Notes under the pieces: model-generated
Database searches by the model: none
What the model was told of the DNA's origin: nothing
What the model saw: only the letters and a program-made list of their open reading frames with translations
Made by a program: the position numbers and the translations under genes
Sequence record: MW570842.1
Source of the DNA: Mycobacterium phage phiT45-1
Reading direction: 5' to 3' (one strand)
DNA length: 43,407 nt
Part shown: positions 24,314-26,471 of the stretch, one piece after another
How the letters are laid out: each line of letters starts with the position of its first letter
How positions within the stretch are numbered: position 1 is the first letter of the stretch

Positions 24314-24862
24314 CTACGCCTTGCTGGATTGACAGTCTGGCACGACGTGATCATTGGTGACCGAGTGCAGATACCAGACGTTATTTACTTGTGCGAGTTC
24401 GATATTCACCTCGGACGATTCCGGCGCTTCATTGTGCGGATCATCGGCGTACCGATACCAGACGTGAATGTACTTGTAACACAGTTTCAGCGTGGCGGTT
24501 CCGCTACCGATTGCCGTGATGTCAACATTCGCAATCTTGGGATCGCTGCGATGATGAGCGAATTCATTCTTGGCGTCATATCCGCTGCCGCGCAACATGT
24601 TGATCAATGCGGTGCCGATATCCCCGTTCAATGCATCGGGCGGAAGGTTGGGGTCAACAATGCGGCTCAGCCGTGTCATACCGGCCTGGTCCGGGCTGTA
24701 TTGATTCATGACGGGCCAGATTTCATTGGTGAACCTGGCGATGATGGCCGGGTCCTGGGGGGCGTCTGCGGTGGTCACAATTGGTCTAGTCTCCGTTTCT
24801 TGGGTATGCGAGCATCCAGCCAATATGAGGCACGCGAACACAATCAGGGCGACCGCTCTCAT
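24314..24862 (-). CDS. lipoprotein (182 aa), candidate immunity protein
   Basis: Signal peptide plus lipobox MRAVALIVFACLILAGC. The start overlaps the stop of the upstream toxin gene by 4 nt. GC content is lower than the phage average. Confidence 0.6.
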   Translation of the reverse strand: MRAVALIVFACLILAGCSHTQETETRPIVTTADAPQDPAIIARFTNEIWPVMNQYSPDQAGMTRLSRIVDPNLPPDALNGDIGTALINMLRGSGYDAKNEFAHHRSDPKIANVDITAIGSGTATLKLCYKYIHVWYRYADDPHNEAPESSEVNIELAQVNNVWYLHSVTNDHVVPDCQSSKA

Positions 24863-26172
24863 TGGCCCGGCACTCGCAATACATCGGCGAAATCCGGTGT
24901 GCGGTTTCGCAGATCGTCAACCTGGACGGGCATTCCGGACCCTGGAGCGTTGATGTAGAACCCATTCCCGAGGTACAGGCCGGTGTGCTGCGTTCCGCTT
25001 GTCTGTCCGCCGAATACAAGAACGTCTCCCGGCCCGGCCTGACCGTTGTTGATTGAAGTACTGGGGATGCGTCCATTCTCATTGATGCGAGTCAGGTTGT
25101 GATTGCCGTCAATTGCATCGGTACCTATGCCAACGTCCAGACCCTTGCCGTTCGGGCCGAACCCTGGGGTGGCTTGCTCCACCGAGTAGCGCACCAGCCC
25201 ACCGCAGTCATACCCGAGACGGGAGGTGTCTTTGAGCCTATCCGCCGTCCCACCGTCGGGAACTCCCGTGGACGGGCCATTGAGGTTCCGGTTACCGCCC
25301 CATGCGTAGCTTGATCCTTGCTGCCCTGCCGCGTGGGCGATCGCGTCAATCGAGCGGTCTCCGGTGGGGGTCCTGGGATCGGGCAGGGCATCGCCAGGTT
25401 TGTAGTGGGCGAGTCGCTTTCGCCATTCGTCGGCAGAAACCCCCGCCTGTAGCGGAGCTATGGACGCATTGGGGCCTAATTTCAAATGCTTCGCAGCATC
25501 CGGTGACGCATTGTTCGCTGTGCCCATGGTCGGATTGGCGAGCTGGCCGTCCTTTGGCGCAAGCGGAAGTTGATCGGCGGGCGTGGCGGCGGCGGCAATC
25601 GTCGGGTCGGGCCTGTGCTCGGGTTGTGGTGCGGGCTGGCTGACATGCGGCCCATCGGCCACGGCACCGCCCGGCGTGGTGATGGCCTTGAGCGCATCGG
25701 CGATTTCTTGGTCAACCACATCGGCTTTGCGTAGCAGCGCTTTCATCTCGTCTTCGAGCTGTTGTTTCGCCGAGGCTCCCTGGAGATCTCCGCTCGCGCC
25801 GCTTATGGAGCCGTCATCGTTCAGCTTCCAGTGCTGCAAGTTGCCGTTTTTGTCGTAGGTGCCGTTGCCCTCAATGGTCGATTTGAGGTATCGGTACTTG
25901 GCCTTGATGCCGAGCACCTCGTCATACAGGGGCCGCAGCTTGTCGGCAACGGCCTTGGCTTGGCGCCCTTGGTCATCCAGATCGACCCGCAGCTTGTTGT
26001 GGTACCTGTGCCACGCCTCGGCAGTCAAACCACCCCAACTAGACAGGTTGGCCTGCACCCCGTCGAGGGTGTCGCCGAGCTTCACATGCGATTTGTGAAT
26101 GCCGTCCATGGTGCCGATGACATTCTGCAAACCCTCCACACTCCAGTGTTCAATATTGGAGCACTTCGCCAC
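24859..26172 (-). CDS. WXG-like N-terminal domain / NlpC-P60 peptidase C-terminal domain protein (437 aa), candidate ESX-secreted polymorphic toxin
   Basis: The N-terminal about 100 aa form a helical hairpin with SWGGLTAEAW (W-x-G). Pro/Ala-rich linker. C-terminal YAWGGN...GYDCGGLV...HTGLYLGNG matches the NlpC/P60 Cys-His core. Confidence 0.65.
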   Translation of the reverse strand: MAKCSNIEHWSVEGLQNVIGTMDGIHKSHVKLGDTLDGVQANLSSWGGLTAEAWHRYHNKLRVDLDDQGRQAKAVADKLRPLYDEVLGIKAKYRYLKSTIEGNGTYDKNGNLQHWKLNDDGSISGASGDLQGASAKQQLEDEMKALLRKADVVDQEIADALKAITTPGGAVADGPHVSQPAPQPEHRPDPTIAAAATPADQLPLAPKDGQLANPTMGTANNASPDAAKHLKLGPNASIAPLQAGVSADEWRKRLAHYKPGDALPDPRTPTGDRSIDAIAHAAGQQGSSYAWGGNRNLNGPSTGVPDGGTADRLKDTSRLGYDCGGLVRYSVEQATPGFGPNGKGLDVGIGTDAIDGNHNLTRINENGRIPSTSINNGQAGPGDVLVFGGQTSGTQHTGLYLGNGFYINAPGSGMPVQVDDLRNRTPDFADVLRVPGQ

Positions 26173-26174
26173 GG

Positions 26175-26471
26175 TCAGCCCTGCCCGTACGAGTCAGCGT
26201 TCAGGTCATCCATCGCAACCACTTGGCCGGTGAACTCCTGCATCCCCACACCGTGCTCGGCGAGGTGCTTGTGCAGCACCCGCGTCTGATCAGCCAAGGC
26301 CGCGTGCGCCGCCTCCAGCGCCCCTTGGGTCTGGCCCCACATCTGCGGCACCGCGGACTCGAGTACGCCGTGGTGCGCGCTGTGCTCGGACTTGGATTCC
26401 TCGACAGCATCGAGCAGCCGATTGGACTGACGCATCATCGGGTCCGGGTGAAGCTCGAACGAGTGCGACAT
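26175..26471 (-). CDS. WXG100 (ESAT-6-like) family protein (98 aa)
   Basis: About 100 aa, two predicted helices with a central MWGQTQGA (W-x-G) motif. Its stop lies 2 nt from the start of the downstream toxin gene. Confidence 0.65.
   Translation of the reverse strand: MSHSFELHPDPMMRQSNRLLDAVEESKSEHSAHHGVLESAVPQMWGQTQGALEAAHAALADQTRVLHKHLAEHGVGMQEFTGQVVAMDDLNADSYGQG

Follow-up and report, generated by a model that had tools for sequence, protein, structure and literature searches.

Which function can be ascribed to the three genes that lie between the lysis operon and the integrase gene of Mycobacterium phage phiT45-1 (sequence record MW570842.1)? The phage DNA analysed here is a single stretch of 43,407 nucleotides with a GC content of 64.7%, referred to below as the window. 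An initial annotation made from its letters had read a minus-strand operon at 24314-26471 as a WXG100-type helper, a WXG-NlpC/P60 toxin and a lipoprotein, together forming a candidate ESX-associated polymorphic toxin-immunity system. In the present analysis the cassette is probably a prophage-borne, ESX-secreted polymorphic toxin-immunity system of the PEST2 type, in which a RipA-like endopeptidase is combined with a WXG100 helper and an NTF2-like lipoprotein inhibitor. Its biological role, be it competition, host interaction or defence, is less certain than the mechanism. The cassette belongs to a type that has already been published, and its recognition here is a rediscovery. What is added concerns the shifted and degraded motifs of the helper, the prediction that the immunity protein has an NTF2-like fold, its strict occurrence with WXG-NlpC/P60 toxins in different genera, and the boundaries of the recombining modules.

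The three co-oriented minus-strand open reading frames (ORFs) were found just as described. The stop codon TGA of the helper is followed after a 2-nt gap by the GTG of the toxin, and the toxin stop and the lipoprotein start share 4 nt (ATGA), which couples the pair translationally. Homologues of the three proteins reach E 1e-293, 1e-57 and 1e-117. Because all three have such strong homologues, the helper, toxin and lipoprotein are genuine genes and not chance ORFs.

Domain organisation of the toxin

The 437-aa protein ends in an NlpC/P60 domain, which had been proposed and is now confirmed. Residues 286-424 match Pfam NLPC_P60 (PF00877) with E 7.3e-12 and 45.6 bits against a cutoff of 23, and the triad of C323, H396 and N408 is intact. 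When the domain is aligned with 8auc and RipA, C323 and H396 fall on their catalytic residues. The cysteine and the histidine are kept in 77/77 NlpC/P60-bearing homologues, while the third triad position is asparagine in 70 of these 77 and otherwise D, E, Q or H, being always polar.

The best match in the PDB is 8auc, a Corynebacterium hydrolase of the RipA/DIP1281 type (E 3e-15), with which the toxin has the unusual loop NGPxxGxxDGGxAD in common. The RipA chains of Mycobacterium tuberculosis match the C-terminal domain (C-domain) at 2e-8 to 4e-6. In NCBIfam, the matches are DIP1281, RipB and RipA, with scores far under the equivalog cutoffs (76.8 bits vs 517 for DIP1281 and 35.4 vs 625 for RipA); therefore the toxin is RipA-like in its catalytic domain alone and is not an ortholog. 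Unlike RipA/DIP1281, it has no signal peptide, carries a WXG100-like N-terminal domain (N-domain) and has Asn instead of Glu as the third triad residue. In comparison with RipA, about 20 extra residues stand between the Cys helix and the His strand. A different architecture is seen in three proteins of 660-670 aa (P0076, P0077 and P0080), where GH19 and NlpC/P60 domains stand behind a repeated N-terminal region without a WXG domain; only the peptidase domain is common to them and the toxin.

The N-domain, residues 1-170, was found to be WXG-like, as the initial annotation had suggested from the motif SWGGLTAEAW. This motif occupies residues 45-54 and contains W46-G47-G48, of which W46 and G48 are invariant in 18 diverse relatives. 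Among these relatives PF06013 is matched by 12/18 (best 4e-4), PF25547 WXG100_2 by 6/18 (1.3e-5) and T7SS_signal by 1/18. The phiT45-1 toxin itself aligns with the Pfam WXG100 model in register (residues 12-80 vs profile positions 6-75) at E 0.089. When the N-domain profile was compared with the PDB, ESAT-6, EsxA and EspB were aligned in register at a non-significant E of ~0.2, amid coiled-coil noise. The names of some JGI homologues include 'YukE'. No literal YxxxD/E is present in the N-domain. The likeness to LXG toxins that had been drawn does not extend to family membership, since neither the toxin nor any of the 18 N-domains matched LXG (PF04740) at E up to 1; the toxin may nevertheless work like an LXG toxin.

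Between the two domains lies the expected Pro/Ala linker (residues 171-275), with 19 Ala and 17 Pro in 105 residues. The toxin has no Sec/Tat signal, and the peak hydropathy in its first 40 residues is 0.43. Lacking a hydrophobic N-terminus, it therefore needs a non-Sec route to reach peptidoglycan.

The helper protein

The 98-aa helper had likewise been called WXG100-like. This holds through its distant relatives but not in the protein itself, which has no literal W-x-G (the site reads M44-W45-G46-Q47), no literal YxxxD/E and no direct match in Pfam (E up to 10), PHROG or NCBIfam. The profile of the close helper family, compared with PDB sequences, returned only apolipophorin (E 1.5) and no solved WXG100 protein.

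An exhaustive profile search of 1.84 billion representative proteins yielded 16 relatives of the helper. Distant relatives carry the canonical GWIGESAxAL, and M44-W45-G46 of the helper aligns on their W-x-G (W in 9/14, G in 11/14), the Trp being shifted by one position. In this broadened family 7/14 members match PF06013 (best 8.2e-14) and 4/14 match EspC. The broadened profile finds ESAT-6 (3fav_B) over the full length at E 1.7e-5, followed by EsxB, EsxA, CFP-10 and MAB_3113. At the position of the CFP-10 export signal, [YF]xxx[DE] is present in 10/14 distant helpers, and V84-x-x-x-D88 in the phiT45-1 helper. Within the phiT45-1 subfamily the first of these residues is V (12/14) or A (2/14), and the residue four places on is D or E in 14/14.

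By transitive homology only, the helper is placed with the all-helical WXG100 proteins of the EsxB/PE kind, as a divergent member that has kept neither hallmark motif undegraded; an intact W-x-G is contributed by the toxin N-domain. Four histidines, H30, H33, H67 and H73, are invariant across the close helper family; it may be speculated that they form a metal site like that of EsxG/EsxH.

The candidate immunity lipoprotein

The third gene, called a lipoprotein gene from the outset, encodes a signal peptide (hydropathy of the N-terminal 15 residues 2.89) with a PROSITE-type lipobox, IVFACLILAGC, whose Cys17 is kept in at least 90% of the family. The AlphaFold2 (AF2) model (pTM 0.73) shows a disordered tether to about residue 31, followed by a confidently modelled domain with three helices and four long strands. 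Residues 32-179 are predicted to form an NTF2-like domain, an alpha+beta cone in which the three helices precede a curved antiparallel sheet. The family has no Pfam model. It is characterised by invariant C128 and C177, the invariant last strand WYLHSITNDHVVPDC and the motif WYLHSITNDHVVPxC. Immunity families of the NTF2 fold have precedent in Imm-NTF2 and Imm-NTF2-2 (Zhang et al. 2012; PMC3482391).

The family always stands after WXG-NlpC/P60 toxins, and it follows each NlpC/P60 toxin examined (loci L001, L002, L004, L006, L007 and L009). Judging from this strict co-occurrence and from co-variation, the product of 24314-24862 is a candidate immunity protein that probably blocks the toxin. A toxin directed at the wall calls for an immunity protein outside the cytoplasm.

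Exchange of payload and immunity modules

The prophage prophiGD05-2 has the same WXG/PT/Imm layout beside its integrase gene. In comparison with phiT45-1, its helper is 90% identical and its toxin N-domain 98%, while identity falls to 36% in the linker, to 50% in the C-domain and to 40% in the lipoprotein. Because of the low identity of C-domain and immunity protein, phiT45-1 is taken to carry a different payload and immunity allele. At the DNA level the two phages are 92-95% identical up to 24400 and from 25628 onward, with undetectable similarity between. Since identity breaks at these two points, the exchanged block comprises the toxin payload and most of the immunity gene.

A more distant replacement was found at locus L003 (542-2055), where the payload that accompanies a PEST2 N-domain (75% identical) and a PEST2 helper (64.5%) is GH19, lysozyme/chitinase-like. 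The gene downstream encodes an unrelated small lipoprotein (VKPTILVVAFCAISLAC...), again with a 4-nt overlap with the toxin stop; its true start (GTGA overlap) lies upstream of the called start. The same N-domain thus occurs with NlpC/P60, with GH19 or with a domain without a Pfam match. Helper and N-domain vary together, as do lipoprotein and payload, and this is the signature of a polymorphic toxin-immunity system. Polymorphic-toxin behaviour can be read directly from these comparisons.

Trios of this kind persist at toxin identities as low as 31-36%, in a further M. abscessus (Mycobacterium abscessus) element (L004) and at loci of other genera. Chromosomal trios occur in Mycolicibacter virginiensis and Mycolicibacterium conceptionense, with no prophage genes evident among the neighbours. 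In Mycolicibacter virginiensis (L006, 7323-8336) the immunity lipoprotein is present after the toxin as two paralogs in tandem, of which the second has a lipobox; surplus copies of this sort are a usual feature of toxin-immunity loci.

The cassette also moves as a whole. The module at 24313-26538, that is the three genes and 67 nt upstream of them, is 94.7% identical to positions 9636-11860 of L009, and the homology stops at 26538. L009 is an integrated prophage with a different backbone, having a 413-aa LysA with M23 and GH25 domains, another LysB and an integrase of 67% DNA identity; its cassette lies about 1.7 kb inside the host junction. Conservation of the module in this different backbone therefore means that the cassette moves between phages as a discrete unit.

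Some further observations were made on these elements. The tail genes at 17774-20332 of the window are 91% identical to the otherwise different L009 prophage, so mosaicism extends beyond the cassette. In L004 a second cassette at 14155-16638, about 5 kb away, consists of a WXG100 gene, a TNT-domain toxin gene and an Imm63-like gene. In prophi91-3 (MW584187.1), a related toxin appears at genes 67-69 in two pieces, one annotated as 'polymorphic toxin protein' and the other as 'RipA-like peptidase domain protein', next to a tRNA-Ser; this may be a disrupted or rearranged cassette.

Relation to known systems

The phiT45-1 announcement annotated the gp30-gp32 cassette as PT/Imm/WXG-100 (Amarh et al. 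2021, PMC7953293; MW570842). The closest phage records are M. abscessus prophages that are annotated alike, and a GenBank note reads 'RipA-like peptidase domain and WXG motif'. Dedrick et al. 2021 (PMC8092301) had described 19-21 such configurations, several of them expressed in lysogens. Abad et al. 2023 (PMC10654092) named the systems PEST and made prophiGD05-2 gp62-64, with gp63 as toxin, the representative of PEST2; PE/PPE-like heterodimers were predicted, and the demonstration of toxicity and immunity was confined to members of PEST1 and PEST3. Benedict et al. 2026 (PMC13444075) described TapA1/TapA2/EatA/EatI of M. abscessus subsp. massiliense, in which an arabinanase is delivered between mycobacteria via ESX-4. 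In their survey of 946 M. abscessus genomes, NlpC/P60 was among the most common payloads, and extracellular targets were paired with lipoprotein or transmembrane immunity proteins. Zhang et al. 2012 (PMC3482391) had listed Tox-NLPC/P60 only with type VI secretion system (T6SS), PVC and TcdB/TcaC export. The idea that the pairing of WXG and NlpC/P60 domains might be uncharacterised is not upheld, as PMC7953293, PMC8092301, PMC10654092 and PMC13444075 already cover it. The proposed likeness to M. abscessus prophage toxin systems near att sites agrees with the 98% identity of the PEST2 N-domain and with the position of the integrase, about 0.4 kb from the cassette.

Compared by description, the EatA system has in common with the phiT45-1 cassette a helical N-domain for a T7SS (type VII secretion system), upstream helical helpers, an envelope-attacking payload and an inhibitor encoded downstream that is a lipoprotein. 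In Eat the payload is an arabinanase (GH183), in phiT45-1 a peptidoglycan endopeptidase, and Eat has two helpers where the phiT45-1 cassette has one. EatI has been called a newly characterised fold (PMC13444075), while the phiT45-1 lipoprotein is predicted to be NTF2-like. The EatA N-domain clusters with LXG-like domains of Bacillota, and that of phiT45-1 matches WXG100 models.

In EsxA/EsxB (ESAT-6/CFP-10) and PE/PPE pairs, the canonical substrates of T7SSa, the W-x-G is found on one partner and [YF]xxx[DE] on the other, and the phiT45-1 pair may have a composite-signal arrangement of this kind. Unlike in EsxA/EsxB, the WXG partner of phiT45-1 is fused to a linker and enzyme of 270 residues, and the helper has degraded motifs and a single-helix monomer model. 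Tae/Tai of T6SS and TelC/TipC of T7SSb likewise combine a wall-attacking toxin with an immunity protein outside the cytoplasmic membrane. Tae effectors are NlpC/P60-superfamily enzymes. The likeness is again one of description. Tae/Tai belongs to another secretion system, TelC/TipC to T7SSb and not T7SSa, and the immunity folds differ.

Proposed mechanism and points against it

The three genes would be transcribed leftward as one unit from the 67-nt upstream region, and transcription would end at the hairpin 24268-24302. By homology, the helper would pair with the toxin N-domain into an EsxAB- or PE/PPE-like helical bundle. Toxin W46-x-G48 and helper V84-x-x-x-D88 could then form a composite signal read by a host ESX machinery, most likely ESX-4 and possibly ESX-3, as homology and the analogy with EatA/TapA suggest. 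With the Sec/Tat signal missing, ESX export appears to be the only evident way of the toxin to peptidoglycan. There the C-domain, as a RipA-type D,L-endopeptidase, should cleave the stem peptides of cells without immunity. The lipoprotein carries the location signals for Sec export and lipidation at Cys17 and would be tethered to the plasma membrane on the outside. The NTF2-like domain of the lipoprotein would bind and inhibit the endopeptidase in the wall compartment of the producer, in keeping with co-occurrence and co-variation. Sequence comparison shows that recombination swaps the C-domain together with the immunity gene, the conserved flanks being the DNA of the N-domain and the 3' end of the immunity gene, and that the whole cassette also moves among prophage backbones.

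A wider proposal, held tentatively and with somewhat less than even confidence, is that the lipoprotein family represents previously uncharacterised inhibitors of RipA-type NlpC/P60 enzymes and that the toxin is the first peptidoglycan-degrading effector delivered between mycobacteria by T7SSa (ESX-4), both encoded on a prophage-shuffled 2.2-kb module. M. abscessus is a drug-resistant pathogen whose prophages carry many such cassettes, and these may shape strain competition, virulence and possibly the outcomes of phage therapy. Since mycobacterial cells depend on RipA for their separation, a protein that specifically inhibits RipA-type hydrolases would be of use as a tool.

Several points weigh against an ESX-secreted toxin-immunity system. 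The helper equivalents of W-x-G and YxxxD/E are degraded to M-W-G and V-x-x-x-D, and the helper and the toxin N-domain of phiT45-1 both fall under the Pfam thresholds. A structure prediction had been proposed as a check for the WXG hairpin. The hairpin did not appear: AF2, given a 14-sequence alignment, modelled the helper monomer as one helix over residues 11-96 (pLDDT 88, pTM 0.45). Foldseek returned 0 matches with this model because it is a single helix. Alignment of the helper and toxin N-domain profiles by hhalign was not significant (probability 0.2% and 5.9%). The sigma-70 consensus scan gave no promoter match relevant to the cassette. The related NlpC/P60-type cassette of prophiGD21-1 is transcriptionally silent in its lysogen (PMC8092301). 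A peptidoglycan hydrolase must moreover cross the mycomembrane of the target in order to act, a difficulty that exists even for EatA (PMC13444075). Secretion, toxicity and inhibition are, for this subtype, inferred.

Alternative explanations

Instead of attacking rival bacteria, the cassette might target its own lysogen or the infected animal, with the secreted endopeptidase remodelling the lysogen's wall or releasing muropeptides that change the host's immune sensing or drug tolerance. The lipoprotein would then be a dose-limiting regulator, and expression might be limited to growth inside host cells. The role of the PEST cassettes has been called unclear, with virulence, competition and phage defence all named (PMC10654092), and for the prophiGD21-1 cassette, silent in culture, expression only in host cells has been suggested (PMC8092301). 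The RipA-type enzymes found among the NCBIfam and PDB matches are normal cell-separation hydrolases. This explanation is nonetheless unlikely, as payload and partner are swapped together, immunity genes stand in tandem and NlpC/P60 alternates with GH19, all of which is typical of antagonistic pairs, and the architecturally matching EatA system kills between mycobacteria (PMC13444075). Highly improbable is an anti-phage defence or superinfection-exclusion module. Defence was named as a possibility in PMC10654092, and the cassette adjoins the integrase and repressor genes, a frequent site of mycobacteriophage defence genes (PMC8092301). The same trio, however, is present at chromosomal loci of other genera where no prophage genes are evident among the neighbours, and a T7SS tag with an extracytoplasmic inhibitor is hard to fit with intracellular abortive infection. 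The PADLOC scan gave no credible match, only a coiled-coil-like ZorA for the helper (E 0.0026).

It is also quite improbable that the cassette is a decaying or export-incompetent relic, passively carried, with a toxin that is no longer secreted. All three ORFs are intact, as is the catalytic triad in 77/77 NlpC/P60-bearing homologues. M44, G46 and the D/E at position 88 of the helper are invariant across the subfamily and therefore speak for purifying selection, and the 94.7% identity of the cassette across different prophage backbones therefore speaks for recent spread. These observations stand against the degraded helper motifs (M-W-G for W-x-G, V-x-x-x-D for Y-x-x-x-D/E), the missing direct Pfam match, the silence of the related cassette in its lysogen and the split toxin of prophi91-3, which would all suit a relic. 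Scarcely credible, finally, is an ordinary phage lysis enzyme or virion-associated lysin. The PHROG matches of the C-domain are indeed tail proteins with lysin activity (5.6e-8 to 4.6e-4), and NlpC/P60 domains are found in minor tail proteins of Gordonia phages, but these matches are limited to the C-domain, while the N-domain is WXG100-like and not a tail domain. The toxin gene is preceded by a WXG100 helper and coupled to a lipoprotein gene, and homologous trios occupy chromosomal loci with no prophage genes evident nearby. Identity as an endolysin or tail lysin was rejected on the grounds that a separate, complete lysis cassette (LysA, LysB and a holin-like gene) lies on the opposite strand and that the toxin is without a Sec/Tat signal. 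The separation of the cassette from the lysis machinery, maintained in the initial annotation, is accordingly kept, whereas its designation as a lysogenic-conversion module is not assured, given the silent cassette of prophiGD21-1.

Locus layout and flanking genes

The features of the locus are collected in Table 1. The hairpin that separates the cassette from the lysis operon probably terminates transcription in both directions. The RNA of 24235-24330 folds at -55.1 kcal/mol (z = -7.9), and 0/200 shuffles fold as well. The consensus terminator scan missed this hairpin because it has no U-tract, and it was folding that revealed it. The region upstream of the helper is probably the site of the cassette's own promoter: a -10-like TATATT is found at 26502-26507, and a GAGGGGG ribosome-binding site stands just before the helper ATG.

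Table 1. Features of the putative phiT45-1 toxin-immunity locus and its surroundings (positions in the window)
Feature	Position	Strand	Remarks
Helper, 98 aa	26175-26471	-	ATG start
Toxin, 437 aa	24859-26172	-	GTG start
Toxin N-domain, residues 1-170	25663-26172	-	WXG100-like helical T7SS-targeting domain
Toxin linker, residues 171-275	25348-25662	-	Ala/Pro-rich; recombination breakpoint at linker start
Toxin NlpC/P60 (RipA/DIP1281-type) domain, residues 276-437 plus stop	24859-25347	-	peptidoglycan endopeptidase domain
Catalytic C323	25204-25206
Catalytic H396	24985-24987
Third triad residue N408	24949-24951
Lipoprotein (candidate immunity protein), 182 aa	24314-24862	-	ATG start
Upstream region, 67 nt	26472-26538	-	travels with cassette; 92% identical to prophiGD05-2
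Perfect 15-bp GC-rich hairpin	24268-24302		between lysis operon (end 24256) and cassette (end 24314)
LysA	21830-22486	opposite to cassette	converges on cassette
LysB	22474-23658	opposite to cassette	converges on cassette
Holin-like gene		opposite to cassette	part of convergent lysis operon (operon end 24256)
Tyrosine integrase	26900-27814		upstream of cassette
Helix-turn-helix (HTH) repressor	27833-28222		upstream of cassette

The records of prophi91-3 and prophiGD05-2 place attP inside the immunity repressor gene, and immunity in these phages is therefore integration-dependent. By analogy, the attP of phiT45-1 should lie in the 3' part of its repressor gene, which would bring the cassette close to attR in the lysogen. 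Homology between phiT45-1 and prophi91-3 stops near 27894.

Between the helper and the integrase gene, a minus-strand ORF of 100 aa with a TTG start occupies 26539-26841 and has no PHROG match; it is probably gene 33 of phiT45-1. Over 26594-26727, part of this ORF, identity to the hypothetical protein gp37 of phiGD21-1 is 69%.

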